From assembly GCA_964599625.1 (NCBI GenBank), contig CAZRGC010000005.1:10462-74461 (forward strand): a DNA stretch of 64,000 nucleotides, written 5' to 3'. Below the pieces are notes generated by a model, which saw only the letters and a list, made by a program, of their open reading frames with translations, had not been told where the DNA came from and did no database searches. A program made the position numbers and the translations under genes. Below, in pieces: positions 3,771-59,681 of the stretch. Numbering within the stretch: the stretch's first letter is position 1; every line of letters begins with the position of its first letter. Source of the DNA: an uncultured Gammaproteobacteria bacterium (lineage in GTDB: Bacteria > Patescibacteriota > Microgenomatia > UBA8517).

Positions 3771-4343
3771 TCAGTCTAAAGTGCCGATCGCGGCGCGAAC
3801 CCTTGGGTCTGTCAGGCTTTCTTCAAAGTATGTTTCGGCAACCTGGCGTGCAACTTCCAGATCTTTCGGACTGGCCAATCCAAGCCTTGAAAAAATCCCG
3901 TATGCCAGGCGTTTTTGGACTCCACCTTTGGGAGTCAGGAGCCATTCCAGGTATACCAAATATCCGTAGAAGGCAGGAATAAACGAATTCTCATCGTTGA
4001 CATTTTCCCCTGCTTTCTTGGCGAGAACCATTGTCTCCAAATAACGGACAAAGTATTCTGCCATGCCCTTCTTTGGAAATCTGTAACCCAAAAGCTTCAA
4101 GGAAAACTCTGTCCAAAGTTCATCTTCCTCGTAAACTTCTTTCATCGACGGAGTCCCTTGAAGCCACTGGTGAGCAAGTTTGTAGCTCTCCAGAAGTACA
4201 CGGAGCATCGGATGCGGCTTTCGGCTTTTGAGCCAATCCAAAGACTCACCCATGCGCTCCAAACCAACCTGACTCAGCTCAGCGGCAACATTAATGTTGA
4301 CAAGTTCCACAGTTTTTACTTTTTTTGATGTGCGAGAGGACAT
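3771..4343 (-). CDS. paralog family A member 1 (190 aa), unknown function
   Basis: shares motifs LLGYRFPKKGMAEYFVRYLE and C-terminal ARQVAETYFEESLTDPRVRAAIG with 4454..5206 and 5344..6105. Confidence 0.65.
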   Translation of the reverse strand: MSSRTSKKVKTVELVNINVAAELSQVGLERMGESLDWLKSRKPHPMLRVLLESYKLAHQWLQGTPSMKEVYEEDELWTEFSLKLLGYRFPKKGMAEYFVRYLETMVLAKKAGENVNDENSFIPAFYGYLVYLEWLLTPKGGVQKRLAYGIFSRLGLASPKDLEVARQVAETYFEESLTDPRVRAAIGTLD

Positions 4344-4405
4344 CTTAACTCCTAACCATTATTTAAATCCTAAGTGTGGATTTTACCACAAAACTATAGG
4401 AAAGC

Positions 4406-4440
4406 ACAAAAAAGGGGCAAACCAATATGATTTGCCCCTG
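4406..4440 (-). terminator. intrinsic terminator (GGGGCAAA-tcatattgg-TTTGCCCC + U-tract), near-identical to copy at 5301..5337
   Basis: CACAAAAAAGGGGCAAACCAATATGATTTGCCCCTGAGGGAA shared with 5301..5343. Confidence 0.7.
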
Positions 4441-4453
4441 AGGGAAACGAAAA

Positions 4454-5206
4454 CTATGCGGCGACGAGCTCCGCGACTTTGGGATTTTCAAGGCTTCCGC
4501 GCAGGAAAGCATCCGCTATTGCGCGAACCTCATCAAAATCCGATTTGGTCGAACCACCCAAACGCTTCCAAAGCATCAGGATGAGCTTCTGATGAAGCTT
4601 CTTGGCAGAATCCGGCACCCGGCGCTCCATGAAAGCGATGTTTCCTGCCATGACCTTCAAACCAGACTCCCGCCGGTTCATGATCGCATCCCCTTCCGAG
4701 ATTGCCGATTTTCCGGTCTCAAGCTCGGAAAGCAAAACTTCAAGCCGTTCAACCCTCGGGCCGAGATTTGGAATAAACTTGGCGTAAGCCTTGAGCGTCG
4801 GAATCAAATCCTCGCGGCTACACTCCAGCTCCACGGCCATCTGTGAAAGCTCGATCTCGATCAGGTTGGTTTTCAGCCTTGATTCTTCAATGATACTTGC
4901 CGCATTATCGCCAGCTTTGAGCACGCTCATAAGCGCAACGTATTTGCCAAAATATTCGGCAAGGCCGTACTTTTTGAAACTGAAGCCGAATTTGGCCGTG
5001 AGTTCGGCAAAAGCCTTCTCGTCATCGTCGGCGTCTTGAACGAACTTTTCAAGCATCGTTACAAGCCCAGGATGAATATTCATCGTTCTCGCACTCAAGC
5101 GGAGTTCGGGAAGTCTGTCTTCACCAAGACTCCTGAACATCTCGATCATCTTGATCCTGGCGGCCAGTCGTTCAACAAACTGCTTATCTTTTTTGGAAAG
5201 AGCCAT
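4454..5206 (-). CDS. paralog family A member 2 (250 aa), unknown function
   Basis: motifs FKKYGLAEYFGKYVALMSVLKAG and VRAIADAFLRGSLENPKVAELVAA align to the other two members. Confidence 0.65.
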   Translation of the reverse strand: MALSKKDKQFVERLAARIKMIEMFRSLGEDRLPELRLSARTMNIHPGLVTMLEKFVQDADDDEKAFAELTAKFGFSFKKYGLAEYFGKYVALMSVLKAGDNAASIIEESRLKTNLIEIELSQMAVELECSREDLIPTLKAYAKFIPNLGPRVERLEVLLSELETGKSAISEGDAIMNRRESGLKVMAGNIAFMERRVPDSAKKLHQKLILMLWKRLGGSTKSDFDEVRAIADAFLRGSLENPKVAELVAA

Positions 5207-5300
5207 TCTTCCTCCGTCAAACTGGAAAAAATTAGATAGAACTCCGGAATCTTAACTTAAACATGCATAAAAGTCAAAAATTATAGGTTGTAATTTTAAT

Positions 5301-5337
5301 CACAAAAAAAGGGGCAAACCAATATGATTTGCCCCTG
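5301..5337 (-). terminator. intrinsic terminator, near-identical copy of 4406..4440
   Basis: identical hairpin GGGGCAAACCAATATGATTTGCCCC. Confidence 0.7.
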
Positions 5338-5343
5338 AGGGAA

Positions 5344-6105
5344 CTACTTCTTACTTTCTGCGATCTTGGAAACTCTGCGGTTAAGGACGCTCTCGCGATA
5401 GAAGTCCTGGGCAAGCTTCTTTGCGCGTTCCAAGTCGAGCTTGGATGCACCATTTTCTGCCTTCCAGCGCTTTAAAAGCCCGTCTTCGTCGTCGCGGTTA
5501 AAATCCACCTGGCGGCTGAATTCGTTTAAGTATCCGAATATCGCCGGCAAGAAGATGCCCAGTACGCCGACAAGTGCTTCGGTAACCACCACTTCCTGCT
5601 TGAGTTTTTCGACGGCATTGACAGTCTTTTGGACCTCAAGCGCATCTTTCAAGCCTCCATTGCGGAGGGCCCAAATGGGAAGGTCTGATACCTTGACGCG
5701 AGCAGATGCGGCGATAGCGGCGAGCGGAATGGCGGCGGTCAATTGAAGAATTTTAAGGTTTGAGACCTCATCCTCAATCTCGCGGTACATGCTGGCAACA
5801 TGCAGGTTTTGCAGGTAGACCAAGAAATACTGAGCCATGCCAACCTTGGGAAGTTTGTATCCCAAAAGTCGCTCTGCCTTGTCCGCCCACTTCGCATCTT
5901 CCTCCAGAATGGTGCCCAGGTTCAACTCGCCTTTCACAGCCGACTTGATATCGAGCACCTCCAGGGCCTCTCCCAAAAGAGGATGAGCCTTATTGCGACG
6001 AACGAAGGCATCTGCCTCTTCCATCCCACGCTCACCGTCAATTGAGTAATCGAGTGCCTTACCCAAGCCCTTCAAGAGCTCTTCAAAGTTAATTTGCTTG
6101 GACAT
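5344..6105 (-). CDS. paralog family A member 3 (253 aa), unknown function
   Basis: motifs LLGYKLPKVGMAQYFLVYLQNLHVASM and AKKLAQDFYRESVLNRRVSKIAE. Confidence 0.65.
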   Translation of the reverse strand: MSKQINFEELLKGLGKALDYSIDGERGMEEADAFVRRNKAHPLLGEALEVLDIKSAVKGELNLGTILEEDAKWADKAERLLGYKLPKVGMAQYFLVYLQNLHVASMYREIEDEVSNLKILQLTAAIPLAAIAASARVKVSDLPIWALRNGGLKDALEVQKTVNAVEKLKQEVVVTEALVGVLGIFLPAIFGYLNEFSRQVDFNRDDEDGLLKRWKAENGASKLDLERAKKLAQDFYRESVLNRRVSKIAESKK

Positions 6106-8568: not shown

Positions 8569-9219
8569 TTAATGTCTTTCGTGCCCGTGATGGTGGTGAT
8601 GGTGGTGTTTGTGTTCACTTTTAGAAGCTTCCGCCTCTTTGGAAACTCTCATTACACCAATACCCAACTCTAAAAAGGCCAAGTCTGCGTTTTGAATAAG
8701 TTCTTCTTTAGATCCTTCATTCCAAATTGTCCTATCAGCCAGCTCAAGACATTTGTCCACCTGCATTGCAGTGGAACCTTCTTCTCCTCTCTCTCTTTCA
8801 AGCATCTTTATAAATTCTTCAAATGTTTCGGGGTCTCCCGGGCGCTTCCTTTCTTTCATTCTTTTAAAAAGCGTTTCAGGACTTGCCGTGATTCCAATTA
8901 CTTTTGCATCAAAAAAGTCTTTAAGAAAAGTTATTTCATCGGGGTGTCTTATGCTGTCAATCACGACTAAATCGGCGTGTTTGAACTCATTTTTGGCAAC
9001 AGTCATTCTTGCCAAAATGTCAGCACCTTCTTTTGCTCTCATATCATCACCAAGGTTCTGAAGCACTTCGCGTTTATGTGACCATCCATATTTTGTAGCA
9101 ACTTCACGCAAGATGTCCGAAAGCGAAAAATAAGTAAATCCTTGGCCAACCAAATACTTGCTTATTTCCCCTTTTCCGCCGGACCCTGGTCCTGTAAAAC
9201 CAATTATCACTCTTTCCAT
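8569..9219 (-). CDS. P-loop NTPase, adenylate-kinase-like nucleotide kinase with native His-rich C-terminus
   Basis: Walker A GFTGPGSGGKGE resembles AK GxPGxGKGT; C-terminal KSEHKHHHHHHHGHERH. Confidence 0.55.
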   Translation of the reverse strand: MERVIIGFTGPGSGGKGEISKYLVGQGFTYFSLSDILREVATKYGWSHKREVLQNLGDDMRAKEGADILARMTVAKNEFKHADLVVIDSIRHPDEITFLKDFFDAKVIGITASPETLFKRMKERKRPGDPETFEEFIKMLERERGEEGSTAMQVDKCLELADRTIWNEGSKEELIQNADLAFLELGIGVMRVSKEAEASKSEHKHHHHHHHGHERH

Positions 9220-9275: not shown

Positions 9276-9312
9276 AAAAAAAACCGCCAGGTCTTTCGTA
9301 AAAAACCTGGCG
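9276..9312 (-). terminator. intrinsic terminator of the Ubl operon (CCGCCAGGT...ACCTGGCGG + U8)
   Basis: perfect 9-bp stem, A8 run on plus strand = U8 on minus strand, 30 nt after Ubl stop. Confidence 0.7.
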
Positions 9313-9341
9313 GAATTACCAACAAAACGATCAGAAACCGG

Positions 9342-9584
9342 TTACTTCCGGCCGCCCTCAACGAGGGGGATCAGGAAGATGCTGTCGCCGTTGCGGACAG
9401 TGGCGGTATCCCAGTCGTCCTCGGGGATGACTGCTTCGTTGCGCTCGACAGTGTTGACGTCATCGAGTGAGAAGCCGGCCGCTTCGACCGCTTCGCGCAA
9501 ATTCATGGCGTCACCTTCAAAGGTGTACTGCTTGGTATCGCCGTCCGAGAGGTCGGCAACCGTAATCGTGCTTTTTCGTGCCAT
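9342..9584 (-). CDS. ubiquitin-like / MoaD-ThiS-like beta-grasp protein ending LVEGG-RK (2-residue extension after di-Gly)
   Basis: 80 aa from ATG at 9584 with SD AAGGAG; ORF-track start at 9626 is a TTG; C-terminus GGRK; adjacent E1 and JAB genes; visibly GC-richer than neighbours. Confidence 0.65.
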   Translation of the reverse strand: MARKSTITVADLSDGDTKQYTFEGDAMNLREAVEAAGFSLDDVNTVERNEAVIPEDDWDTATVRNGDSIFLIPLVEGGRK

Positions 9585-9641: not shown

Positions 9642-10310
9642 CTATTCTACCATCATGCGGAATCTTTTCAAATCCACTGTTATGGCTTTAGGCAATGAAC
9701 CCGGATCTGTAAGAAAAGTTTTGACAACTTCGCCAACAACACCGGCACAGTTCATGACTGTGTAAAAAATAGCCGCTTGGGTGCAAACGGCATTGTGGAC
9801 TTTCACCTTGCGGAAAAGTTTTTCCTCGTATGCCTCCACCCGGATTTTGTCGCCCATTGGAATGGGGTAAATCTGATAAAGCTCTCCCGCCATCCTGGTT
9901 TCCACATACAAAGGAATGTGTTTGGAGCTCTTTCTTACCCCGCGCCAAATGTCTTGTCTGCCTTCGATCGAATGAACCGCACTCACAACAATTCCGTTAA
10001 GAGCTGTTGGTGCATGGTAATCTTTGGCAAATGGCGTTGCCTGGACAGTGGTGAATTCCATTAGATTTGTCGCCAAAGACTCTGCCTTTCCCTTACCAAG
10101 TTGAGATAACTTGAAAAACTGGTTGGGCAAATTATGGCTTTCGATCTTGTCGCTGTCCCAAATGGAAAGAATGTCCACACCCATCTTGGCAAGTGTGAAT
10201 CCGATCGGAGACCCCAGGCCGCCTGCACCAATCAAAACAAACGGATATTTGTTCAGGATTTGGGGAGGCAAAAGGCCCATCTGTCTCGTAAAGTTCAAGC
10301 GTTTTCCCAT
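9642..10310 (-). CDS. minimal ThiF/MoeB/E1-like adenylyltransferase (222 aa)
   Basis: Rossmann motif VLIGAGGLGSPIGFTLAKMGV and WDSDKIESHNLPNQFF (DxDxVExSNLxRQ-like); SD AGGAGG; candidate Cys in CTQAAIFYTVMNC. Confidence 0.8.
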   Translation of the reverse strand: MGKRLNFTRQMGLLPPQILNKYPFVLIGAGGLGSPIGFTLAKMGVDILSIWDSDKIESHNLPNQFFKLSQLGKGKAESLATNLMEFTTVQATPFAKDYHAPTALNGIVVSAVHSIEGRQDIWRGVRKSSKHIPLYVETRMAGELYQIYPIPMGDKIRVEAYEEKLFRKVKVHNAVCTQAAIFYTVMNCAGVVGEVVKTFLTDPGSLPKAITVDLKRFRMMVE

Positions 10311-10849
10311 TCAACCTCCTGTTTCGAAGATGGTTTGTAAACGACCTTCTCAGCAACTTCCTTTTCCAACTCTGCGCGCGTAAAGATTACTTCGTCTTTG
10401 CCCGTGTAGGTGTAAATCGTGAAGTTAAAAACGGAAAAGGGTTCGGGTTTTTGGATGTCGTACCGGGTCGCGAAATGTCCCTCTTTATTCCCCACAATTG
10501 AAAACAGTGGATATTTTTGGGACATCCGTTTGATTGTCTCGTCATCCTTGTCGCGCGACCAACCAACTTGGAAAACTCCATGGCTATGCCACCAAAGGCG
10601 GAAAGCCGAAAGAGGAATGCCTTTGCCAACCATCTCACGCACAAAGGCGGAGTGGCCCAATGGGTCAAAAGTGGTCAGAATATCTGTTGCGGTCTGTTTA
10701 ATAAGATAAAGATTGCGCACGTAGTGCACACCTTCAACCTCCTCAATATGACCCAGCCCACTAATCTCGCCTTTGGCAATGTCGATGTAGGTAAACCACT
10801 TTTCAAAAACAGTCTCCGGCATATAGACTACCGGTAAATAATCTTCCAT
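10295..10849 (-). CDS. JAB/MPN (JAMM) metallopeptidase
   Basis: Glu in GLGHIEE plus WWHSHGVFQVGWSRDKD (HxH-x7-S-x-D); 16-nt overlap with E1 gene; SD AAGGAG. Confidence 0.7.
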   Translation of the reverse strand: MEDYLPVVYMPETVFEKWFTYIDIAKGEISGLGHIEEVEGVHYVRNLYLIKQTATDILTTFDPLGHSAFVREMVGKGIPLSAFRLWWHSHGVFQVGWSRDKDDETIKRMSQKYPLFSIVGNKEGHFATRYDIQKPEPFSVFNFTIYTYTGKDEVIFTRAELEKEVAEKVVYKPSSKQEVEWENA

Positions 10850-11876: not shown

Positions 11877-13079
11877 TTATTTGTCCTGCTGAAGTTGTTT
11901 GAGGCCCATCACTCTCAAGTAATCACGATCAAAAGCTGCCACTAATGACTCTTTGGAAGAAAGCGGTCCGGGTTTTAGAAACCTAGTGCCTGCGCCTTTC
12001 TGCACTCTTGCGCAAATATCCAAAAAGTCCTGCTTGTTGGTTAGGTCCCAAAAATCCACAGCATCCTTGGGGTTGTAGCCAGGAGACTTGGCAGCGTCTT
12101 TCCTAAAAAGCCATCTACTTATTATTTTTGTTTTGTTCTCAGATATGGGAACTATCAAGTCATAGTTGACATAATCCGGATGCACTCCCAAAAGAAGCAT
12201 TCCCGGAGAAAATGAATATGCGTAAAGCCGCTTAACCTCGTCCTCCTTAAAATCCCCCAAAAGGGGTGCGCAAAACTCGCCGGAGATTGTAAGGTCATCA
12301 TATCCTTCTTTAACAAGCATATACCCACCCAAAACCGGCCCTTCTGTAACATCGTTGAACCAGGATTTGTAACCGGAAACCCTTATCAACTGAGGATGCT
12401 TTGTAGGACAATGATCACACTCTTCATAGTTTTCAAAAATTATTTTCCAATTTGCAGGGATATTGTTATAAACAATTTCTGCTCCCAACTCTAGCTCCCC
12501 TAATCCGTATTTATCCAAATCTGTCGGCAGATAAGGAAATGCCTCTTCAAAATTCATTGGTCTATTCGGGTCAACATTAATAAATATAAAACCGTTCCAC
12601 ACATGAACTGCAGACTCCTGAATGCAAAGCTCTTCCCTTTCAAACCCTTCGGTTTCTTCCAATGCCATGGCATTAATTACTTTTCCATTTTTATCAAAGG
12701 TGATGCTGTGATAATCGCACTGAATAACCTTGTTCAACTTCTTTTCTTCTTTTTCTTCTGTTATTTCGACGTCCCTATGCCCGTGATTTTCATCGTGTGG
12801 ATCTTCCATCAAACGGATATTTCGGTGTGGGCAAACATTATGCAGTGCCTTAACACCTCCGTCTTCACCTCTAAAAACTATTATGCTTTCGCCGTCAATT
12901 TCATACAAAAAATAATTATCGGGATTGGGTATGTCGCTTACATGCCCAACACAAATGGGGTTTTCATAAATGAACTTTTCTTTTTCTTTTTGGAAAATCA
13001 CCTCGGAGGTGTAAAACTCACCACTCAATACTCGCGAACCCTTCACAAACGTCTCCTGTGTTCTTTTTGCTTCCGTCAT
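11877..13079 (-). CDS. Rieske [2Fe-2S] domain non-heme iron oxygenase-like protein
   Basis: Rieske boxes VCPHR and QCDYH (unusually long His-rich spacer DPHDENHGH); candidate mononuclear Fe site EECDHCPTKH. Confidence 0.55.
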   Translation of the reverse strand: MTEAKRTQETFVKGSRVLSGEFYTSEVIFQKEKEKFIYENPICVGHVSDIPNPDNYFLYEIDGESIIVFRGEDGGVKALHNVCPHRNIRLMEDPHDENHGHRDVEITEEKEEKKLNKVIQCDYHSITFDKNGKVINAMALEETEGFEREELCIQESAVHVWNGFIFINVDPNRPMNFEEAFPYLPTDLDKYGLGELELGAEIVYNNIPANWKIIFENYEECDHCPTKHPQLIRVSGYKSWFNDVTEGPVLGGYMLVKEGYDDLTISGEFCAPLLGDFKEDEVKRLYAYSFSPGMLLLGVHPDYVNYDLIVPISENKTKIISRWLFRKDAAKSPGYNPKDAVDFWDLTNKQDFLDICARVQKGAGTRFLKPGPLSSKESLVAAFDRDYLRVMGLKQLQQDK

Positions 13080-13115: not shown

Positions 13116-13988
13116 TCATCTTGGGCCTTCGTCTCTACTACGAAGTTCGTCGCTTATCATAGCTCTCACAATACCTTGGACCTCCTCCCTTGTTATGGGA
13201 ATATAAATTTTTTTAAGCTCACCTAAATACTTTGCATAAGCTTTTTCTGGGGATTCCTGAGGACGCATTGATTTCACACCAATATCATTCATGGAAACAA
13301 TATCAACTTGCTCGGGAAGCTCGGCCTCAAGGTCAAGACCTTGAATAATTCCGCGATACTGAGGTTTCATCCCATTTACCAACTTCCAAAGATTTCTTTT
13401 AAATCCTTCAAATTGCTTTTCACCTATTCCACCTTTAACTTTTGCGTCTAGTGCCCCTACAATTTTGGCAACTCTTTTACCCGAGACTGAATCTGTCTTT
13501 ATATCAATTAGTAAAGCGTCAGGATTCTCCACCGGCCTTGTTCCAGGAAAAAGATTCAGACTATACGTTAAATTATCCATATTTTCGCCATATTCACCGT
13601 TCTCGTCAGGCACTGGAAGCGGGTCCCCTTCCAAATTCATTTCGCTCTGGCTAAAAAAATCGATGTCTCTATATTTATTAGACATCAGAACTCTCTGCAA
13701 AAAATCTGCCAAAGCTCTGTTTTCTGGGTTATGAGTAAGTCTTGTGTAATAATAATTAAGGGCTATCTCCTCAAAAACAAACCCGGAAACACTTCCAAAC
13801 ACGTCGGGTGCTTCCAAAGCATCTTTTCCATGATTTTCTATACGGTTGTGGATATATGTTTTTACACCTTGATACCTGTCACTTGCATAAAATTCCTGGA
13901 CCAGTTCATCTTTGAGCCTATTCCTCTCGGTAAGCGCTTTATTTTCTACTTTTTCCCCAACCGGAAATCCTTCGCCAACTCCTTCCAT
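13116..13988 (-). CDS. hypothetical protein (290 aa), first gene of the Ubl operon
   Basis: 36-nt gap to Rieske gene, same strand; no recognisable motif. Confidence 0.5.
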   Translation of the reverse strand: MEGVGEGFPVGEKVENKALTERNRLKDELVQEFYASDRYQGVKTYIHNRIENHGKDALEAPDVFGSVSGFVFEEIALNYYYTRLTHNPENRALADFLQRVLMSNKYRDIDFFSQSEMNLEGDPLPVPDENGEYGENMDNLTYSLNLFPGTRPVENPDALLIDIKTDSVSGKRVAKIVGALDAKVKGGIGEKQFEGFKRNLWKLVNGMKPQYRGIIQGLDLEAELPEQVDIVSMNDIGVKSMRPQESPEKAYAKYLGELKKIYIPITREEVQGIVRAMISDELRSRDEGPR

Positions 13989-14204: not shown

Positions 14205-14228
14205 ACAATATTGGTATATAATTACAAT

Positions 14229-15041
14229 ATGAGACGAAATTTCGGCAAAAAAAGTATTAATAGTAGGCAACGCCGAACCATTCACACTGAGCGTAGCAGA
14301 AGTACTTCCTGGGAAAATTCTTCAAGGTGGTATAACAAGATCACGGGAGAAAAAGGACATTATTACCACGAACATGTGGTTATTCCCGGTGTACTAAAAC
14401 TTTTTGACCTCAAACCGGGAGATAAACTTTTGGACTTGGCTTGTGGCAACGGTATTTTGGGAAGAAGCATCCCCAAAGGAATCGAATATCTTGGTGTAGA
14501 TTTGTCGGAGAGCTTGATATCGGTAGCCAAAAAAATGGATACAAACATTAATCACAAATACACTTCGGGTGACGTTACCCATCCATTAAACGTAGGTGCA
14601 GATTTCAATAAAGCCGCAATTATACTTTCTTTGCAAAATATCAAAAAACCGCATCTTGCTATTGATAACGCGTCCAAACACCTTGCTTCCGGAGGAGTTT
14701 TTGTAATCGTACTCAACCACCCTGCATTTCGCATTCCAAGACAGTCTTCCTGGGGAATCGAACAAGGGAGGCAAATTCAGTACAGAAGAGTTGATAAATA
14801 CATGTCCCGAATGGTGATACCGATAAACACAAACCCCAGTGACAAAAACTCCCCCGTCACTTGGAGTTATCATTTCCCCATAAGTGAATATTCCAAGATG
14901 CTCAAAAACTGCGGGTTTGTAATTTCGGAAATAGAAGAATGGACAAGCGACAAAGAAAGTGAAGGAAAAGTGGCAAAGATGGAAAATCGGGGCAGGAGTG
15001 AAATCCCTCTATTTTTAGCAATTGTTGCCACAAAGATTTAA
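14229..15041 (+). CDS. class I SAM-dependent methyltransferase
   Basis: motif I LLDLACGNGILG, motif post-I LGVDLSE; start at MRRNFGKK (ATG 14229). Confidence 0.75.
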   Translation: MRRNFGKKSINSRQRRTIHTERSRSTSWENSSRWYNKITGEKGHYYHEHVVIPGVLKLFDLKPGDKLLDLACGNGILGRSIPKGIEYLGVDLSESLISVAKKMDTNINHKYTSGDVTHPLNVGADFNKAAIILSLQNIKKPHLAIDNASKHLASGGVFVIVLNHPAFRIPRQSSWGIEQGRQIQYRRVDKYMSRMVIPINTNPSDKNSPVTWSYHFPISEYSKMLKNCGFVISEIEEWTSDKESEGKVAKMENRGRSEIPLFLAIVATKI

Positions 15042-15741: not shown

Positions 15742-15814
15742 GGCCCTATCGTCTAGTGGCCTAGGACACGGGGTTTTCAGCCCTGTAACCTGGGTTCGAA
15801 TCCCAGTGGGGTCA
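15742..15814 (+). tRNA. tRNA-Glu (anticodon TTC)
   Basis: acceptor GGCCCTA/TGGGGTC (2 GU), D-arm GTCT-AGTGGCCTA-GGAC, anticodon loop TTTTCAG, T-arm CTGGG-TTCGAAT-CCCAG; no encoded CCA. Confidence 0.85.
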
Positions 15815-15927: not shown

Positions 15928-15999
15928 GGGCCCATAGCTCAATGGTAGAGCAACACCCTTTTAAGGTGATGGTTACAGGTTCGAGTCCTGTTGGGCTCA
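15928..15999 (+). tRNA. tRNA-Lys (anticodon TTT)
   Basis: acceptor GGGCCCA/TGGGCTC, D-arm GCTC-AATGGTA-GAGC, anticodon loop CTTTTAA, T-arm ACAGG-TTCGAGT-CCTGT. Confidence 0.85.
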
Positions 16000-19257: not shown

Positions 19258-19328
19258 TGGGGGATCGTCTAATGGTAGGACAGCAGCCTTTGGAGCTGTG
19301 AATTGGGGTTCGAATCCCTGTCCCCCAG
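19258..19328 (+). tRNA. tRNA-Gln (anticodon TTG)
   Basis: acceptor TGGGGGA/TCCCCCA (U1-A72 typical of bacterial tRNA-Gln), D-arm GTCT-AATGGTA-GGAC, anticodon loop CTTTGGA, T-arm TGGGG-TTCGAAT-CCCTG. Confidence 0.85.
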
Positions 19329-24898: not shown

Positions 24899-25528
24899 AT
24901 GGAATATTTACTCAGGCGTGCCAGAGAAATAATGACACCCAAAGAAAAGGTGCTGCCTTTAACCATGACAAACGAAGCTAGGGGCCATTTGAAAAGGTTG
25001 CTTTCTAGACCAAATCCCTTTCTTTCTGAATTTCTGTTCTATGCGCTTGGTAAAAACGGTATCATCGACACAATTGTGGCAAACGAACATCCCATGTATC
25101 CAGGTTCGGGGCTGCGTCAGGATGGCCCAAATAGCTACCTCTCTACGGCTGGAGAAGACGATGCAGAAGCACTAAACAAAAAACTGCTATCAGTTGGGCG
25201 ATTTGAAGACATGCTTGTTTATGGACACACTCACCCATCAGGTAGCTTTATATTCAAAGGCCAAAGACTGACGGTCGCGCCCAGTTACTCACACCTCAAT
25301 CCATCCTCGGGATCCAAGCTTTCAGGCGGAATTACAAGTGCTCACGATATGAAGGCGGCAAGACTCTTGGCCGAAAATTGGAGAATATCAAACACACCTC
25401 CCCACTTTGGAATTGCAGCACTCACCGAGGATGGTTACAAAATGAAAGTATTTAACACGCAGGATCTGGCAAAAGCCAAACGCTACCAAGACATAGACAA
25501 TGCCCAACAAATAACCATCGATCTGTAA
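24899..25528 (+). CDS. RadC-like JAB/MPN domain protein, tandem paralog 1
   Basis: ANEHP Glu, VYGHTHPSG (RadC HNHPSG-like) and downstream SAHD; 209 aa. Confidence 0.55.
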   Translation: MEYLLRRAREIMTPKEKVLPLTMTNEARGHLKRLLSRPNPFLSEFLFYALGKNGIIDTIVANEHPMYPGSGLRQDGPNSYLSTAGEDDAEALNKKLLSVGRFEDMLVYGHTHPSGSFIFKGQRLTVAPSYSHLNPSSGSKLSGGITSAHDMKAARLLAENWRISNTPPHFGIAALTEDGYKMKVFNTQDLAKAKRYQDIDNAQQITIDL

Positions 25529-25553: not shown

Positions 25554-26177
25554 ATGGAAATCTCCACTCAACAACCGCAAGAACTGACAAAAACGATAGA
25601 GAACGAAGTCGCTCTCACCATGACTAAGGAATCATCTCAGCTTCTTGGAAAATTATTGCTCCGCCCCAACCCCATGTTTTCAGAGTTCATGTTTTTTGCC
25701 TTGGGTGAAAATGGAACCATCAACGAAATAGTTGTTGCAAATACCGAAAGCCACCACCCTGAATCCGGCATTAAATTCGGACTTACTGGTTTTGGCCTTG
25801 GGGTATCAAGGAACGAACTGATTCAAGTTATGCAGAAACTTGAAAGAGAAGGTAAAATCGACAAAATCATGGTAGTTGGGCATTCTCACCCCTCTGGTAG
25901 ATCTGTACACAAAGGAATCACTCTACAAATAGATCCCAGCGACGAACTTTTGGAGCCATCTATGGGTGGGGTGCTGCAAGGAGGCCCGACAAAAGCAAAA
26001 GATCTCAAATTTGCATACGACTTGGAGCACGATGCAGGATTTCCTCATGAATTTTTTGGTATTGGAGCCGTAACAAACGAAGGACCCAAACTCAGGATAT
26101 ACAGAACAAAAGACCTGTCAAAAGTTAAAAAGAGCAAAGAAATTAACAGCCTCCCCCAGCAAACAATCAAACTTTAA
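25554..26177 (+). CDS. RadC-like JAB/MPN domain protein, tandem paralog 2
   Basis: ANTESHHPESG, VVGHSHPSG, PSDE; colinear similarity to 24899..25528 (LLxRPNPxxSEFxFxALGxNG...). Confidence 0.55.
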   Translation: MEISTQQPQELTKTIENEVALTMTKESSQLLGKLLLRPNPMFSEFMFFALGENGTINEIVVANTESHHPESGIKFGLTGFGLGVSRNELIQVMQKLEREGKIDKIMVVGHSHPSGRSVHKGITLQIDPSDELLEPSMGGVLQGGPTKAKDLKFAYDLEHDAGFPHEFFGIGAVTNEGPKLRIYRTKDLSKVKKSKEINSLPQQTIKL

Positions 26178-27294: not shown

Positions 27295-27342
27295 TTCCCA
27301 CAAAAAAAACCGCTGTCGGCGGTTATTAGCGAAGTCAAAGAA

Positions 27343-27804
27343 TTATCTTGTAACCGAAATGGTTGGGGTTGTTCCACCTACAGCCTCAGCAGCTGGTGCG
27401 GCAACTGTAACTCTACCTGCTGTATCTCTGACAACTGTATATCCTGTCGCGTATGCGGCTGCACAATTGCTGACTGCCGTTCCACTTGTCGGAGGTGATG
27501 GGTCCGAAGGAAGAGACGCAATGTAAGTCGGGCTTATAGCTGCACAAATATCAGCAGCACCCGTTGCAATCTCTTGAGCGGTAGTTGTAATTCCGGCTGG
27601 AAGAACTCCTTTGTTATCGGCTGCATATTGATGAATTGCATTCAAAAGCTGAGTTACATCACTTCTTCTGGCTGTGTTATTTGCCTGGGCAAACTGTCTG
27701 GCTGGGTTAATGGCAATAAGGACGATTGCAAGAAGAATACCCAATATACCAATTACTACAAGAAGTTCAATCAGTGTGAAACCTTTAACTCTTAACTTGG
27801 GCAT
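27343..27804 (-). CDS. type IV pilin (major pilin-like)
   Basis: prepilin N-terminus KGFTLIELLVVIGILGILLAIVL. Confidence 0.8.
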   Translation of the reverse strand: MPKLRVKGFTLIELLVVIGILGILLAIVLIAINPARQFAQANNTARRSDVTQLLNAIHQYAADNKGVLPAGITTTAQEIATGAADICAAISPTYIASLPSDPSPPTSGTAVSNCAAAYATGYTVVRDTAGRVTVAAPAAEAVGGTTPTISVTR

Positions 27805-27852
27805 AATTAAATCTAGATCACCAAAATATTAGTGTCAAGTGGTAATTAAAAT

Positions 27853-28518
27853 TCACCTTCTAAAAATCAGTAGTGCAGCAAGCACCACCAAAAGTATTCC
27901 AAACACCAAAAGCATGTATGGCAATGCTTTGCTTTTTTGTTTTACTTCTACCTGTTTTGGAGTTTCAGACTGCTGAACTGCAATTTTATTGATCATGCTT
28001 CCACTGAGATTCGATGAGTAATTTTCCAATATTGTAGTTGCAAAAACCTCATCCAACACTCTTCCGGGCACATATCCCGGGAACATCATTGCCGGAGTCA
28101 CTGTCTCAACCACAAATCCCTCTTTCCCCAATACTTCAGCAATCAGCTCAACAGTTTCTTTGTTGGTGGCCACTGTTCTTATTCCGTCTTTAGTACGATA
28201 ATTCTTAGCAAGAACCTGTCCATATGGCACGGCGTCTATAAACTGCTCCATCTTCTCGTTCATAATATTTGGGTCGGTTTCGGATAAGTCATTAGATATG
28301 CACACATCGTTTGCCAGAACCATACTCACACTCCCCGCAGTGCGGCCATTCTTTTTAATAAAAATGTCAACAAATCCGTCAAAAGCACTTCTGTCCAACA
28401 CATCAAAATCTTTGATAACTTTGGGGTCTAAATCTTCTTTTGTAACAATCTTTCCGTCAAAAAAAGATAAACTTTTTGAATCAATAAAAAGAATGTATTT
28501 ACCTTTATCTTCGTGCAT
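27853..28518 (-). CDS. pilus-associated hypothetical protein with C-terminal TM anchor
   Basis: located in pilus operon; C-terminal LPYMLLVFGILLVVLAALLIF. Confidence 0.5.
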   Translation of the reverse strand: MHEDKGKYILFIDSKSLSFFDGKIVTKEDLDPKVIKDFDVLDRSAFDGFVDIFIKKNGRTAGSVSMVLANDVCISNDLSETDPNIMNEKMEQFIDAVPYGQVLAKNYRTKDGIRTVATNKETVELIAEVLGKEGFVVETVTPAMMFPGYVPGRVLDEVFATTILENYSSNLSGSMINKIAVQQSETPKQVEVKQKSKALPYMLLVFGILLVVLAALLIFRR

Positions 28519-28902
28519 TTATTTTTCTTTCCAATAAACCTGAGTCAAAACATTCTGACTGTTTGTAACAACGCTTTCAACTCTTTTGGAATAAGTACCG
28601 TTTGTAGCAGTAGAAACAATAGTCGCGTTTTCCCCGAACCAGCTAACTGAAACAACTATAGTTCCACCACCTGGCTCGTTAATCGTTTCACCGACATAGC
28701 TTGGGTCCCTTAGTAGTTTTATATATGCAGTCTCAATTCCGGAGTCCGCCATTTGCTTAGTGGATATACCCATCGATAAGTCATTTGACGCAACTGCGTT
28801 GGCAGTAACAACAAATATAGCTGTAGAGGCAACCAGTACCGCCATTAATACAAAGATCAGAAGAACTATCAAAGTTTGTCCGGCTTCTTGACTTGTTTTC
28901 AT
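28519..28902 (-). CDS. minor pilin / pseudopilin-like protein
   Basis: N-terminal hydrophobic helix LIVLLIFVLMAVLVASTAIFVV; operon context. Confidence 0.55.
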   Translation of the reverse strand: MKTSQEAGQTLIVLLIFVLMAVLVASTAIFVVTANAVASNDLSMGISTKQMADSGIETAYIKLLRDPSYVGETINEPGGGTIVVSVSWFGENATIVSTATNGTYSKRVESVVTNSQNVLTQVYWKEK

Positions 28903-28911
28903 AATAAAAGT

Positions 28912-29415
28912 TTACCTCAAAGAAACAGCTGTGCTTACAGATCTTAACAAGTCACTTTGAGAATTAATGTTTGATTTCAAAACGTAGTCAACCTTAATAG
29001 TGCTTTTACCCCCCGGTTTACCTGTGTTTGCAAAACTAATATTTACCAGGTCAGTATCCAAACTATTCAGACTGTGAGACTCCGCACCATTGGTCAAAAT
29101 CATCTTGCCGGACGACGACGCCACTTGAATATCCTGGCCATTGTGAACTACATGCAATGTGTCCGATGTGGTCCCATATGCAGGTGATATTACATCTTCA
29201 GAATTTTGTAAAATATAAATTAATTTTGAAAGTATATAGCGCGAATCCCTATTTACCGAACCAACACTTTCGCTATTGAGTTTTGTGTCCAAAGTTGTTG
29301 TAAACATATTCATTAATACCAAAATAAATATCGACATTAGCCCCATATAAAGCACAAGTTCTATCAAAGAAGAACCCAAATACTTTGAATTTTTGGTGTT
29401 TATGTAGTTGTTCAT
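28912..29415 (-). CDS. pseudopilin (prepilin-type N-terminus)
   Basis: GSSLIELVLYMGLMSIFILVL. Confidence 0.65.
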   Translation of the reverse strand: MNNYINTKNSKYLGSSLIELVLYMGLMSIFILVLMNMFTTTLDTKLNSESVGSVNRDSRYILSKLIYILQNSEDVISPAYGTTSDTLHVVHNGQDIQVASSSGKMILTNGAESHSLNSLDTDLVNISFANTGKPGGKSTIKVDYVLKSNINSQSDLLRSVSTAVSLR

Positions 29416-31793
29416 GGCGAATAATTAATGTTAACGTCATTAAGTTGCGGAGTTTGGTTAAAGTCGGTAGTGTCCAAATAACTTTTGTATTTCACACAGC
29501 GTTCGGGGTTGGAGTAACCTCCAAAAGTGCCGACAGGAAAAGTCCCCGAGATGGAAGCAGCACTAGGTGTGTAGTAAGTCGCCGAACTATTGTCTGGCCC
29601 CAAAAAATTGTATAAAGCACCTGTACACAAACCAGCAGAAGGAGTTGCTACCGCTACCTGCATTTTGATATTGGTATTTGCGGGTTGTGTAACACCGGCG
29701 GTAAATCGGTTAAAAGCTGACGATGTTGCAAACGATATCGGACTCGACTCAAAAGTTCCCGAGCCAACATATATCCCCGTATCTGGCCCACCCTGAATAA
29801 TCTTAAGCTGCTTTTCTGTTGTGTTGGCAATCATATAAACAAAATTGTCGCCATCTGCCTCCGAAACACTTGTCAGATCATTAAAACCGGGAAGGTAGTT
29901 CACACCACCGCAATACGCAGGCGCATTCTCGTTTTCAATATTTAAGACTTGGTATTCTTTGGGTTCTGTGGAATCCTGGACCCCATCCTGGCCTACCAAT
30001 ATAGCCCTCCCCCCATTAAGAACAGTAAGGCTTCTCCTGGGAAACAGCTGTATGTTTGTTAAATCTCCATCGTAATATCCGCCCGAGACAATAGAAGGCG
30101 AACTTTTATTGGAAGTGTTCAAGATATAAAACTGGTGGCTATCCGGCGAGCCGTTGTTGTTGCCGTCAATACCTCCATTGCTGGACACATACGCCCTTGT
30201 GCCGTCCGACTTTATATAAACAGAGTTGGCAGCTTCTTCGGTGCCGCTTGAGGAGTTAAAATCCAACGATCCAATTCTTTTCCAACCGCTTGCACCACCT
30301 GAAATTCTTCCGCAGCTGCTACTATTGATCCTTGGATTTGTGGATGAAGAAGGAACACTTGTTACATTTGCTATATTAAACTCTGGATTAGTTCCGGCTC
30401 CCACCGCCACATAGACATAAGTGCTTCCGGACACATTGACTACATCCAGGTCATTGTCTGCATGCAGTTCAATATTGCCCCCATCTGAACAGTTGTTGTG
30501 TGCGGGTGAAGTTGTATCACTCCAGGACGACCCTGTTTCGTTTGATGAATACTTCCTGTCAACTCCGGTTCCGGGAGAACAATCATATCCGTCCAGCTGG
30601 ATCCTGCAACCAACCATATCAAGGCCTATGGTGGGAGATTTGGTGTCAATATTTGTTAAATCAAAAACATAAAGGTAACCGCCCGAAAGTAAATATCCTC
30701 TATTTCCGGATACCGTAAGCGCAGACGCCCCATACCCAAACGGCGCGTGATCCTGATTGGGGGTGGACCGTGTATCACCTTGGTACTGCTTCGTGTTAAA
30801 AAAAGTCCAGTATTTATATATTTTGTTTACGGGATCCTGAAAAGCGCTGGTTCCTCCATTTGTTATCTGAACAACAACGACCTCATGGTCGGGAAGATTT
30901 GTTGCCAGTAGTGCATACATATTACCGCTACCAGCGACATAATATTTAACATCTTTGGTCTTAAAACTGTTGTTCAAATTTATGCCTGTTGGAAAATATG
31001 AAATATCAGAATATTTTGATTGATCTAGAGTAAAAGTACCTTTAAGTGTGGCTAGTGGAGGATCTGTGTCAGCAGTAACACTAATGTATGCAAGTTTAGA
31101 CGAGTTTGTTGCTTCGGGAGACACTGCCACAAATGCCTCATTTGGAATAGCAGAAGATGTCGCCGAGGCGTAGGCACTTACCGCAACAGGAGGTCCGTCA
31201 GGAAGATCGATTGTGGTTTGCGATATTTCAGGTGAGCACCATTTTGCTTTGTTATTATTTGCAAGTTTAACTTCACCTCCATTAACTGTAGTAGTTTGCA
31301 CAGAATTCAATACACCGGCGTTGAAGTCTGCTTGAGTTGTTTGAACCGTCGACGTATTGCCCACATACCTTGAAAGTAAAAATGTAGTCGAAACATTTGT
31401 TGGAATAACGTTATTCCAGGATACAATTACCGTTACTCTTTTAAGCGATGGGTCCCACGGACTTACTTCGCTTATTTCGACGGATCTTGTAAAATCGCCG
31501 ATTGTTTCCTGTCCCAAATCCAAAGCCCACCTCGTACCGTTAAGTTTGGGATGAAAAACGCCGTTTGATTGCACGTTTGCCCAACCCTCTTCCCTCACAC
31601 TTCTGGCTGCACTCACTCCCTCTTCCAAATAACCTGTGGCAATATTTCTTTGTTCTTGTTGAACCTTGCCCCCGCGCGATGCTGCGAACCCGGAAACAAT
31701 CAAAGGTAAAAATATTGTCGCCAACCCAAAAGCCACCACAACTTCGACAACTGTCTGACCAGGCCCTTTTTTCAAATTAATAGGTCGCTCCAT
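29412..31793 (-). CDS. large pilin-like protein (793 aa) with N-terminal prepilin helix and Ser/Thr/Asn/Gly-rich beta-rich body
   Basis: GQTVVEVVVAFGLATIFLPLIV N-terminus; candidate tip adhesin/minor pilin. Confidence 0.6.
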   Translation of the reverse strand: MERPINLKKGPGQTVVEVVVAFGLATIFLPLIVSGFAASRGGKVQQEQRNIATGYLEEGVSAARSVREEGWANVQSNGVFHPKLNGTRWALDLGQETIGDFTRSVEISEVSPWDPSLKRVTVIVSWNNVIPTNVSTTFLLSRYVGNTSTVQTTQADFNAGVLNSVQTTTVNGGEVKLANNNKAKWCSPEISQTTIDLPDGPPVAVSAYASATSSAIPNEAFVAVSPEATNSSKLAYISVTADTDPPLATLKGTFTLDQSKYSDISYFPTGINLNNSFKTKDVKYYVAGSGNMYALLATNLPDHEVVVVQITNGGTSAFQDPVNKIYKYWTFFNTKQYQGDTRSTPNQDHAPFGYGASALTVSGNRGYLLSGGYLYVFDLTNIDTKSPTIGLDMVGCRIQLDGYDCSPGTGVDRKYSSNETGSSWSDTTSPAHNNCSDGGNIELHADNDLDVVNVSGSTYVYVAVGAGTNPEFNIANVTSVPSSSTNPRINSSSCGRISGGASGWKRIGSLDFNSSSGTEEAANSVYIKSDGTRAYVSSNGGIDGNNNGSPDSHQFYILNTSNKSSPSIVSGGYYDGDLTNIQLFPRRSLTVLNGGRAILVGQDGVQDSTEPKEYQVLNIENENAPAYCGGVNYLPGFNDLTSVSEADGDNFVYMIANTTEKQLKIIQGGPDTGIYVGSGTFESSPISFATSSAFNRFTAGVTQPANTNIKMQVAVATPSAGLCTGALYNFLGPDNSSATYYTPSAASISGTFPVGTFGGYSNPERCVKYKSYLDTTDFNQTPQLNDVNINYSP

Positions 31794-32238
31794 ATTTATT
31801 TATTCTGACGACTGTGTTTTTGTCACTGACTGTGTTTGTCAATGTAAAACTGTCATTTCCGGCCAAATACCCAACAAAATCGCCGCTTCCGGATGCAAAA
31901 ATAATCTCGTCGTTTGGTAAATCACTGGCAACAACCACTCCTCCATCCAATTCCACAACCAATTTACCTTCGCCTGTTATGTAACTTTCTCCTTTAAACA
32001 GAGTATAAGAACCCGACTCAAAATGAATTCCATATCCCGAGGTTCCGGACATTGCCAATGTTTGCTGTGCCCTGATATCGTTTACGACTTTGTCATACGA
32101 CAGATCCTGACTTGTGTTGGGAATAAGATTAGAAAGGCTGATTGAGGCTATGCCAAACAACGTTGCCAAAATCCCCATTGTTACAATGAGTTCAATTAAA
32201 GTGAATCCAGACGTCTTACTGTAAGTAAAATTCTTCAT
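31777..32238 (-). CDS. pseudopilin (GspH/FimT-like)
   Basis: SGFTLIELIVTMGILATLFGIA prepilin motif. Confidence 0.7.
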   Translation of the reverse strand: MKNFTYSKTSGFTLIELIVTMGILATLFGIASISLSNLIPNTSQDLSYDKVVNDIRAQQTLAMSGTSGYGIHFESGSYTLFKGESYITGEGKLVVELDGGVVVASDLPNDEIIFASGSGDFVGYLAGNDSFTLTNTVSDKNTVVRINKYGATY

Positions 32239-33299
32239 CTTACACTTCCCACCTGGCTTATGAGTCCGTAGATTGGAGTAATCAATGCAAGCATCAGTCC
32301 TCCTACAACTATTCCCACAAAAACCAACATTATCGGCTCCAATAGCGCAGTTAAAGTTTTCAAAAGGTTGGAAACTTCATAGTCAAAATACTCTGAGATG
32401 TCACTTAAGGACTTATCCAAAGTTCCTGTTTTTTCACCTGTCTCGATAAGTTTAATCATAATTGACGGTAAATATCCCTTTCCTGATCTCAATCCGTCTG
32501 AAAATGTTTTTCCGGAAAGTATTAGCTCTTTTGACTTTTGAATGATATTCCTGGTTTTTTTACTAGAAACAATGTCTTCTGTGAGCTCAAGTGCCCGCAC
32601 TATCGATAGTCCCGAACGAAGAAGAAGGTGCAAACTTCGAGAGAACCGGGTTACATCAATTAGTTTTACCAAATCAGAAATTCCTGGAAGTGAATAAAAA
32701 ATATTCAAGAAAAATTTTTTTTGTTGGGAAAAAATATATATAGCCACCACTGTCACGGCCATTAGCCCAAACAAAAATGGAACCGTATTTTTGGTGAGTA
32801 TGTCAGAAACAAAAATAAGTATTTTGGTTGGCAGCGGCAGCGGGACTTTCAGATTTGAAAATACAACTGCAACTTTTGGTATGACAAAAACCAAATTGAC
32901 AACAAGTACCAAGATAAAAACTAGAATAATAAATATTGGATAAATTAAAGCTGAACGGATCTTGTCGTTAAACTCATTTTGTTTTCTGATATCATCCCTT
33001 AAATCTTTCAGGGTCACATCAAGTGTTCCCGCCATCTCAGAAGCCCTGACAACATTTACCATAACCTTGTCAAAAATCTTGGGAAATCTGGCAAATGTAT
33101 AATTAACCTGGTGTCCTTGAGTCAAGTCATCACGGAGCGTTTCCAAAACCTTTTTTTGATTCCCTTTAGCATCGTCCAAAAGGTTTGAAACAGCATCAAG
33201 GATTGGAATACCCGAAGAAAGCATCGTAGAAAGATTGCTTATAAAGCTTATTTTTTCGCTTTGACTCAGACTGATGTTACCTAAGCTTTGCTCCTTCAT
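32235..33299 (-). CDS. pilC: type IV pilus assembly platform protein PilC (GspF family)
   Basis: two GspF-like repeats, 3 TM segments, 354 aa; overlaps pilB stop. Confidence 0.8.
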   Translation of the reverse strand: MKEQSLGNISLSQSEKISFISNLSTMLSSGIPILDAVSNLLDDAKGNQKKVLETLRDDLTQGHQVNYTFARFPKIFDKVMVNVVRASEMAGTLDVTLKDLRDDIRKQNEFNDKIRSALIYPIFIILVFILVLVVNLVFVIPKVAVVFSNLKVPLPLPTKILIFVSDILTKNTVPFLFGLMAVTVVAIYIFSQQKKFFLNIFYSLPGISDLVKLIDVTRFSRSLHLLLRSGLSIVRALELTEDIVSSKKTRNIIQKSKELILSGKTFSDGLRSGKGYLPSIMIKLIETGEKTGTLDKSLSDISEYFDYEVSNLLKTLTALLEPIMLVFVGIVVGGLMLALITPIYGLISQVGSVR

Positions 33300-34984: not shown

Positions 34985-35019
34985 AATTCATTCTAACATT
35001 AGGGGTTAACCAATACTAA

Positions 35020-41745: not shown

Positions 41746-41860
41746 TTTTGTTTTATTAAAACTGAAGAAAGAATCCCAATAAATTGGGATCCCTTCTTCA
41801 TTCGCCTCTGCGAATATTAGTTTCAAAAGTTCCACCTTCAAAGGTAGAACTCACACCGTA

Positions 41861-51271: not shown

Positions 51272-51502
51272 TACTTTTTTATTTTTTTGGCTAAAAGATG
51301 AAGTGTATTCTTCATAGCCTCTTCTCTTGTCTGCCCCCAAGCCTTTGCTGCCTTTTCAAATGTAGCAACTGTAATATTATCCTGGTTTCCCATGTTGTCA
51401 TCGGGGTTGTCGCATCCGCAGTTGTAACACATATTTAATTCTACTTTATATATTCTATATGTTGAATATGATTAATGTAGCAAGGAGATTATCAACGAAA
51501 TG

Positions 51503-59471: not shown

Positions 59472-59681
59472 TTAAATAGTTTTTGGCGTAGAAAGATATG
59501 AAGAAAAGAAGAAGTAGGCAAAAATAACAGAACCAATAAACATAAGGCCAAATATGACTGACAAAATTCCGTTCCATTCTTCATGGGCAATCTTATTCAA
59601 ACCTTCACCCAAGAGTGTTAACCCGAAAAGTGTCGGCAAAACTAAAATCATATACAGAAACTGTGGGTCAGTTGTGCTCAT
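59472..59681 (-). CDS. small membrane protein (69 aa)
   Basis: 2 TM helices. Confidence 0.4.
   Translation of the reverse strand: MSTTDPQFLYMILVLPTLFGLTLLGEGLNKIAHEEWNGILSVIFGLMFIGSVIFAYFFFSSYLSTPKTI

Follow-up and report, generated by a model that had tools for sequence, protein, structure and literature searches.

The question raised by this locus is what a Rieske-type enzyme is doing beside a set of ubiquitin-related genes, and whether the two belong together. In the 64,000-nucleotide stretch of contig CAZRGC010000005.1 analyzed here (the window), an ATG-start open reading frame at 11877-13079 on the minus strand encodes a 400-aa protein which a preliminary description had presented as Rieske oxygenase-like, with an atypically long, His-rich spacer between its two cluster-binding boxes, and as a possible hydroxylase of a substrate linked to the pathway of a ubiquitin-like protein (Ubl) encoded nearby. 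The reading that we favor, with a probability of roughly 0.7, is that of a functional-looking, alpha-only oxygenase of the group V type, in which a net insertion of 17 residues between the boxes forms a weakly constrained loop, and which stands next to the cassette of ubiquitin-related genes as a result of locus history.

The identity of the enzyme rests on profile, structural and alignment evidence. The Rieske [2Fe-2S] domain, residues 41-143 (12651-12959, minus strand), matches Pfam PF00355 with 59.5 bits (cut-off 20.3, E 3e-16), and the catalytic Ring_hydroxyl_A domain, residues 199-392 (11904-12485, minus strand), matches PF00848 with 94.1 bits (cut-off 24.9, E 1.5e-26). Since both scores lie far above their cut-offs, the profile support on which the preliminary identification had been made to depend is present, and both domains occur in all of the ~100 database relatives of the protein. 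Its closest PDB sequences are CntA (6y8j, 2e-32), the putative dioxygenase 3n0q and the stachydrine demethylase Stc2. An AlphaFold2 model built from a 98-sequence alignment reached a mean predicted local distance difference test score (pLDDT) of 93.5 and a predicted template-modeling score of 0.92, with a pLDDT of 97 in the blocks in which both cluster-binding boxes lie. When this model was compared with the PDB using Foldseek, the same three proteins came out on top, in the order 3n0q, Stc2 and CntA (probability 1.00, template-modeling scores of 0.75-0.84), with the terephthalate, salicylate, naphthalene and biphenyl oxygenases ranking below them.

All of the motifs picked out in the preliminary description are found in the protein: box 1 (C83-P84-H85; 12825-12833, minus strand) and box 2 (C121-D-Y-H124; 12708-12719, minus strand), both read from the sequence, as well as DPHDENHGH (residues 93-101) and the candidate iron motif EECDHCPTKH (residues 219-228). 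The latter is part of a longer mononuclear-iron motif, N210-W-K...E-N-Y218-E-E220-C221-D-H223-C224-P-T-K-H228 (12396-12452, minus strand), which according to its alignment with the CntA segment DNYMECYHCGPAH contains the bridging Glu and two His ligands, together with a Cys pair and the aromatic Y218. Across the 98-sequence alignment, N81, C83, H85, C121, H124, N210, W211, K212, E220, H223 and H228 are invariant, C221 and C224 are each kept in 96/98 relatives, and the position of Y218 is occupied by Tyr (58/98) or Phe (37/98). The resulting iron-site consensus, N-W-K-x3-E-N-x2-E-C-x-H-C-x3-H, holds H223 and H228, and D351 (12027-12029, minus strand), the predicted third iron ligand by analogy with Rieske oxygenase structures, lies downstream in a T-N-x-Q-D motif and is kept in 97/98 relatives. 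The conservation of these three residues, together with the PF00848 match, bears out the iron motif that had been put forward as a candidate. Judged from its sequence, the gene encodes the intact alpha subunit of a Rieske non-haem iron oxygenase in which no [2Fe-2S] ligand is missing.

Within the Rieske oxygenase family, the quaternary-ammonium enzymes of group V have been described as having a bridging glutamate (E205 in CntA) and a Cys-x-x-Cys pair by the iron site, and those of clade Va as having an aromatic residue at CntA position 203 which makes a pi-cation contact (PMC7948474, PMC10952381). In the HMMER alignment, D-N-Y203-M-E205-C206-Y-H-C209 of CntA corresponds to E-N-Y218-E-E220-C221-D-H-C224 of the window protein, which has a bridging Glu instead of Asp (E220, aligned with E205 and kept in 98/98 relatives), a C221-x-x-C224 pair flanking the first iron His, and the aromatic Y218 where CntA has Y203. 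The two-domain, alpha-only architecture is also common to the oxygenase and to CntA (6y8j, 6zgp), Stc2 (3vca, 4quq) and GbcA, among which its best sequence and fold matches are found. Nevertheless, identity to CntA and Stc2 is 21-24% over the fold alignment, the sequence match to CntA spans only the N-terminal 232 residues, and the NCBIfam equivalog model for GbcA gives 138.8 bits against a cut-off of 670. In addition, the Tyr of the group V motif E-C-Y-H-C is Asp in the window protein, its inter-box spacer counts 35 residues in comparison with 18 in group V, and its clade carries private substitutions at the metal sites, with CPH for CRH, CDYH for CPYH and ECDHC for ECYHC. Because of this low GbcA score, the 21-24% identity and the private substitutions, the alignments indicate a group V-type enzyme that is not an orthologue of any characterized member.

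Drawing on the general mechanism of Rieske oxygenases and on the work on CntA, we infer that a reductase or ferredoxin would reduce the [2Fe-2S] cluster held by C83, H85, C121 and H124. In a head-to-tail alpha3 trimer, the bridging E220 would carry the electron across to the iron in the neighboring subunit (H223, H228 and D351), where O2 would be activated and a small cationic or methylated substrate oxidized, most likely by mono-oxygenation or N-dealkylation. Among more distant homologues (38-42% identical), those of loci L076, from an Anaerolineales metagenome-assembled genome (MAG), and L077 are located beside two genes for flavin adenine dinucleotide proteins resembling amine oxidases and phytoene desaturases, and in L077 a GCV_T aminomethyltransferase gene also adjoins the oxygenase homologue. 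These neighbors hint at demethylation or amine chemistry, a hint which is unsafe to transfer to the clade of the window protein.

The spacer between the boxes is where the protein departs from its relatives. It had been put at about 34 residues against a usual 15-17; in fact, 35 residues separate H85 from C121, and the usual spacer of Rieske oxygenases, a typical rather than strictly defining value of 16-18 residues, is exceeded. Among the 98 family sequences, the spacer has 18 residues in 87 and otherwise ranges from 16 to 23, apart from the long ones: a spacer of 35-36 residues is present only in the window protein, in P0001 (97% identical) and in P0002 (84%), and orthologues P0003-P0007 (61-68% identity) have 18 residues and no insert. 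A wider sample was assembled from loci in genome and metagenome collections and comprised 143 distinct inter-box segments, measured with reference to the invariant Asn that precedes box 1 by two residues. Here, 93/143 spacers have 17-19 residues, one has 23, 45 have 27-33 and belong to several unrelated sequence types, and three, including that of the window protein, have 35-36 and are the longest of the sample. The spacer is thus atypically long in comparison with close relatives, as had been claimed, but the norm is 17-19 rather than 15-17 residues and, with 27-33 residues in 45/143 relatives, other proteins have long spacers as well. The inter-box site is insertion-prone in this enzyme family.

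The additional length is accounted for by a lineage-specific loop, residues 95-114 (HDENHGHRDVEITEEKEEKK; 12738-12797, minus strand), found only in the window protein, P0001 and P0002, which takes the place of three residues of the orthologues and so adds a net 17 aa. In the nucleotide alignment, the difference appears as a clean in-frame insertion of 51-54 nt, within which an imperfect AAG/CTT repeat (12738-12759) encodes EEKEEKK, suggesting that the loop arose in part through slippage of the AAG repeat. In the AlphaFold2 model, residues 91-110 form the sole weak stretch, with block pLDDT means of 62 and 59 and values below 50 for residues 97-99. While the window protein and P0002 are 84% identical overall, their loops are only ~40% identical. 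The insert contains three His residues, of which H95 and H101 are retained in the window protein, P0001 and P0002, and H99 is replaced by Arg in P0001 despite 97% identity. DPHDENHGH is therefore not a conserved motif, in view of the low identity of the loop and the loss of H99, and the qualification of the spacer as His-rich is weak. Collectively, the loop is highly charged and weakly constrained and is predicted to be disordered, features which, along with its partial origin from a repeat, lend no support to a special functional element.

By comparison with the canonical Rieske fold, the loop would cap the inter-box hairpin at its exposed end and, because the flanking cluster-binding residues are modeled with high confidence, it probably leaves cluster binding undisturbed. 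The long spacer is best read as the tolerated expansion of a surface loop, and not as a new kind of cluster site. An inter-box hairpin able to absorb up to ~18 extra residues matters for annotation rules which assume a spacer of 16-18. A pseudogene, or an insert created by a frameshift artefact, was also considered and rejected: the insert preserves the reading frame, and three independent assemblies carry it in varying form.

Longer spacers have precedents. MsmA, the large subunit of methanesulfonate monooxygenase, is an active enzyme with a CXH-X26-CXXH arrangement (PMC4433239). It resembles the window protein as a Rieske alpha subunit with a longer-than-usual spacer; while the spacer of MsmA is conserved and is treated as a family signature, the 35-residue spacer is fast-evolving and confined to a shallow clade. 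Similarly, the homologues of L015-L071 (26-33% identity), from Steroidobacteraceae, Acidoferrales, Chloroflexota and Actinomycetota MAGs, carry an insertion at the same inter-box site, resulting in spacers of 27-33 residues, and keep all ligands. Their inserts differ in sequence and are conserved within each subfamily, and neither a Ubl cassette nor the kinase or methyltransferase genes described below are found nearby.

The preliminary description was accurate in that genes for a Ubl, an E1 and a JAB protein physically flank the oxygenase gene on the same strand. The first gene of this cassette (10859-11761/11818, minus strand) encodes p319/p300, a narrowly distributed protein with three database relatives and a possible E2-like C-terminus, H-x-H-V-Y-S-x-G-x-L-C269-L-G-N, in which H259, H261 and C269 are invariant. 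This segment recalls the HPN...C active site found in E2 enzymes of the UBC type, and H259-x-H261...C269-L-G-N aligns with the active site of the UBC E2 2fo3 at E=1, which is not significant; for this reason, the E2 identity of the protein is a lead and not a result. An AlphaFold2 model of p300 from a three-sequence alignment had a pLDDT of 49, too low for it to be used in searching for similar folds. The second gene (10295-10849, minus strand) encodes a 184-aa JAB/JAMM-family metallopeptidase with 1766 relatives in an exhaustive HMMER search. The JAMM pattern E...H-x-H-x7-S-x2-3-D is found in this protein, and its residues E28, H88, H90, S98 and D102 are invariant in 49 aligned relatives, 18 of which match Prok-JAB (PF14464); the 184-aa protein itself has no direct Pfam match. 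Searches of the PDB with the sequences of p184 and p319 returned insignificant matches only. The cassette is completed by a small ThiF-family, E1-like adenylyltransferase of 222 aa (9642-10310, minus strand; Pfam ThiF PF00899, 4.5e-14), which is also matched by PADLOC E1-E2 models (down to 2e-12) and by NCBIfam ThiF and Cap2-type models, and by an 80-aa ThiS-family Ubl (9342-9584, minus strand; Pfam PF02597, 6.9e-8) ending in VEGG-RK, the orthologues of which end in GG-QK, GG-KK or GG-K.

A ThiF-type E1, a JAB protein and a GG-ending beta-grasp Ubl are common to this cassette, with its candidate E2, and to bacterial and phage Ubl systems, which may or may not include an E2, such as those of Bil-type defense and of the Cap2/Cap3 branch of the cyclic-oligonucleotide-based antiphage signaling system (CBASS). 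The cassette differs from these systems in having no system-level match in PADLOC apart from the E1 domain. When the oxygenase and its neighbors without family assignment were scanned against PADLOC and NCBIfam, the E1 and kinase domains were the only specific matches. We know of no Bil-type or CBASS Cap2/Cap3 cassette which includes a Rieske oxygenase.

Two further genes frame the locus. On the far side of the cassette, a P-loop nucleotide-kinase-like protein (8569-9219, minus strand) matches Pfam AAA_17/AAA_18 and, in the PDB, AdkA-like and UPF0200 proteins; its family is common in genomes of the candidate phyla radiation (CPR) and of DPANN and is often fused to dCMP deaminase, and the gene may simply serve nucleotide salvage. 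The protein ends in a His-rich tail, SEHKHHHHHHHGHERH (8569-8640, minus strand), with counterparts in the orthologues of L001 (HEHHHHGHEHHG), L006 (ERDHHHHHGH) and, partly, L003, though not L005; such tails resemble the metal-binding tails of metallochaperone NTPases. Several small orphan genes follow on the minus strand. On the other side of the oxygenase gene, a divergently transcribed class I S-adenosylmethionine methyltransferase (14211-15041, plus strand; Pfam Methyltransf_23/11/25) is a conserved anchor of the locus, with orthologues that are 62-87% identical in L001, L003, L006, L082 and L083.

The comparison of related contigs is what bears on the proposed tie between oxygenase and cassette. 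The order of the locus is divergent methyltransferase, Rieske, nucleotide-kinase-like gene and small genes, with the cassette lying between oxygenase and kinase in some lineages. It does so in L001/L002/L008/L009 (Rieske 84% identical, spacer 36) and in L080/L081 (97%, spacer 35). Conversely, in L003 (65%, spacer 18) nothing lies between the Rieske and kinase genes, which are directly adjacent; in L005 (61%, spacer 18) the kinase gene follows after a gap of ~200 nt containing no gene; in L006/L007 (42%, spacer 17) the two genes overlap by 13 nt; in L083 (40%, spacer 17) an unrelated gene for a 607-aa protein separates them; and L004 (63%, spacer 18) has neither cassette nor kinase. Orthologues with 40-66% identity thus keep a syntenic locus without the cassette (L003, L005, L006 and L083). 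The reverse situation is encountered in L082, where the cassette directly follows the methyltransferase gene (62% identical) and no Rieske gene is present. L008 and L009 are near-identical copies of the 84%-related locus in MAGs labeled as Gammaproteobacteria and Nitrospiraceae, on short contigs which are probably mis-binned. Between the window and L083, oxygenase identity is 40%, next to 69% for the methyltransferase, 68% for the kinase, 66% for p80 and 63% for p131; the oxygenase would either be fast-evolving in the window clade or have been replaced by a different member of the family.

The cassette also occurs in viral genomes. A scan of viral contigs with the E1 alignment yielded 29 phage contigs bearing an E1 relative, in 21 of which a JAB homologue adjoins, and none of the 29 encodes the oxygenase, the kinase or the methyltransferase. 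In these IMG/VR phage contigs (L165-L192; 13-175 kb), the E1 relatives are 24-40% identical, and the adjoining JAB gene is mostly upstream, as in the window. A Ubl homologue is detectable in two of the 29 E1-bearing contigs.

One contig, L084 (kinase 53% identical), keeps the full order of the window: Rieske, p319-like, JAB, E1, Ubl and kinase. Its oxygenase is 40% identical to that of the window and belongs to the CRH/CPYH/ECYHC clade; its spacer has 28 residues owing to an acidic insertion at exactly the alignment position of the window insert, whereas its cassette-free relative in L083 (63% identical) has 17. Divergence between L084 and the window is alike for E1 (45% identity), Ubl (42%) and oxygenase (40%). 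The idea that the cassette is a recent insertion confined to the window clade was overturned by L084, where the same arrangement is found in a distant clade, and as a consequence of this shared order the arrangement may be ancestral, with repeated losses.

Signals at the DNA level were also recorded around the cassette. Downstream of the Rieske gene and ahead of the cassette there is a promoter-like site (11862-11834), and a strong intrinsic-terminator-like hairpin (9284-9313, minus strand; 13-bp stem with seven GC pairs and a T8 tail) directly follows the Ubl gene, though L001 and L084 showed no such hairpin at the corresponding position. Since oxygenase and cassette each occur without the other, and since the promoter-like site and the terminator-like hairpin delimit the cassette, the two are separable modules sharing a locus that varies. 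The kinase-like gene and the methyltransferase accompany the oxygenase more constantly than the cassette does. The adjacency of oxygenase and cassette would thus reflect the history of the locus and not a demonstrated shared pathway, and the co-occurrence pattern, which shows no obligatory coupling, gives no support to the proposed link of the oxygenase to the Ubl pathway. A second promoter-like element, TTGAAA-16 nt-TAGAAT with a TG before it, falls within the last part of the E1 coding sequence, shortly before the Ubl gene (9644-9671 of the window, minus strand; also L001 8627-8654 and L084 5571-5598). It is kept although the E1 proteins are as little as 45% identical, and may serve as an internal promoter from which the Ubl gene is transcribed, or may simply follow from the conservation of the E1 C-terminus.

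Could the oxygenase and the Ubl cassette cooperate all the same, either through the Lys- and acid-rich loop serving as a docking or conjugation site for the E1, E2-like and JAB proteins, or through an oxygenase acting on a Ubl-linked substrate? We regard this as unlikely, although the genes are co-directional and closely spaced, and the order Rieske, cassette, kinase recurs in L084 together with a lengthened spacer. The spacers at the cassette-bearing loci have 35, 35, 36 and 28 residues, and those of all five cassette-free lineages 17-18. The loop of the window protein offers four Lys (K110, K113 and K114 in the insert and K117 just after it) and that of L001 five or six. However, this association amounts to two independent events, for which a naive Fisher test (2/2 vs 0/5) gives p ~0.05 with no correction for phylogeny; many distant relatives that lack the cassette have spacers of 27-33 residues; the window and L084 inserts are unalignable, the latter having a single Lys; and the promoter-like site parts the Rieske gene from the cassette. 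To these points is added the mutual independence of the two modules, with oxygenases lacking the cassette in L003-L006 and L083 and cassettes lacking the oxygenase in L082 and the phage contigs. The narrower proposal that the inter-box loop co-evolves with the adjacent E2-like/JAB/E1/Ubl cassette is, in our estimate, slightly less probable again. If true, the loop would be a handle by which a bacterial Ubl system modifies or regulates a metabolic enzyme encoded alongside, and it would represent a housekeeping, non-defense use of bacterial Ubl conjugation in a small-genome bacterium. A loop insertion linked to the Ubl system would be the weightier finding, as the targets of bacterial Ubl systems outside phage defense are largely unknown.

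The cassette itself might have another function. With a ThiS-family Ubl ending in GG plus two residues which would require trimming by the JAB protein, and with an E1 that is a minimal 222-aa ThiF, the ThiS-like protein, E1 and JAB could work as a sulfur carrier (thiocarboxylate) system of the CysO/Mec+ or QbsCDE kind, while the oxygenase, methyltransferase and kinase, which would represent typical tailoring activities, would belong with it to a single biosynthetic cluster for a small molecule. This is improbable: Pfam scans found no rhodanese, cysteine desulfurase or sulfur-acceptor enzyme in the cluster, the E2-like H-x-H...C-L motif of the remaining cassette gene, that of p319, points to conjugation, the JAB-E1 pair is typical of phage genomes, and methyltransferase, oxygenase and kinase stay together in lineages devoid of the cassette. 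Least probable of all is an extra metal-binding or redox-tuning site formed by the loop His residues (H95, H99 and H101) by the Rieske cluster, perhaps supplied by the His-tailed P-loop protein. The retention of H95 and H101 in all three long-loop sequences, and the conservation of the kinase tail in the window, L001, L006 and partly L003, would agree with such a site, but P0001 has Arg in place of H99, disorder is predicted for the loop, the L084 insert has a single His, and the insert-free orthologues of L006 and L003 keep the same His-tailed kinase partner.

The preferred reading, a functional-looking group V-type oxygenase placed beside the cassette by locus history, also has points against it. 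While a reductase gene is adjacent to the oxygenase gene in CntAB, GbcAB and Stc2-4, Pfam scans of the window revealed no reductase or ferredoxin gene in the operon or within ~25 kb; a Pyr_redox_2 protein (40786-41841, ~28 kb away) and a ferric-reductase-like membrane protein (49706-51340) are no more than distant candidates. Small-genome, CPR-like bacteria are generally regarded as fermentative, and an O2-dependent enzyme is therefore unexpected in such a host. The private CPH, CDYH and ECDHC substitutions beside the metal sites are unusual and may affect the enzyme. Finally, two cassette-bearing clades with Rieske proteins that are 40% identical both carry a loop insertion, a suggestive parallel which a coincidence of neighborhood leaves unexplained.

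The kind of enzyme described here is already known; what is new is an uncharacterized member with a lineage-specific loop, which adds a probably CPR-associated branch to the Rieske oxygenase family. That a small-genome lineage keeps an O2-dependent oxygenase in a conserved locus is of mild interest as regards how such organisms live.

Upstream of the Rieske gene, a gene at 13116-13988 (minus strand) encodes a 290-aa protein with no family match in Pfam, PADLOC or NCBIfam. Homologues are encoded by L001 (45%) and also by L083 (38%), where the cassette is absent; the protein is therefore not specific to the cassette.

As for the host, the locus probably belongs to a conserved region of a small-genome, CPR/Patescibacteria-like lineage. 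Three tRNA genes (15742-15814, 15928-15999 and 19258-19328, plus strand) are found near the locus, and the window also contains a type IV pilus cluster (~27300-35000), an ATP-dependent DNA ligase (57753-59456) and a Fic protein (59678-60742). These tRNA, pilus, ligase and Fic genes fit a cellular, small-genome bacterium and not a phage, and the pilus genes and ATP-dependent ligase, along with the many small orphan genes and the CPR and DPANN relatives of the kinase, support the CPR-like assignment.

Two other groups of genes in the window deserve mention. At 3771-6105 (minus strand), three consecutive genes encode products of 190, 250 and 253 aa; the 250-aa product had no match in the comparison with L001, in which the 190- and 253-aa products match one and the same 251-aa protein and look like paralogues. 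At 24899-25528 and 25554-26177 (plus strand), between NAPRTase and SpoU methylase genes, tandem paralogues of 207-209 aa with no Pfam match carry a GH(T/S)HPSG motif reminiscent of JAMM peptidases. In L003, a gene for a 209-aa protein, which may or may not be homologous to them, is likewise located between SpoU methylase and NAPRTase genes.

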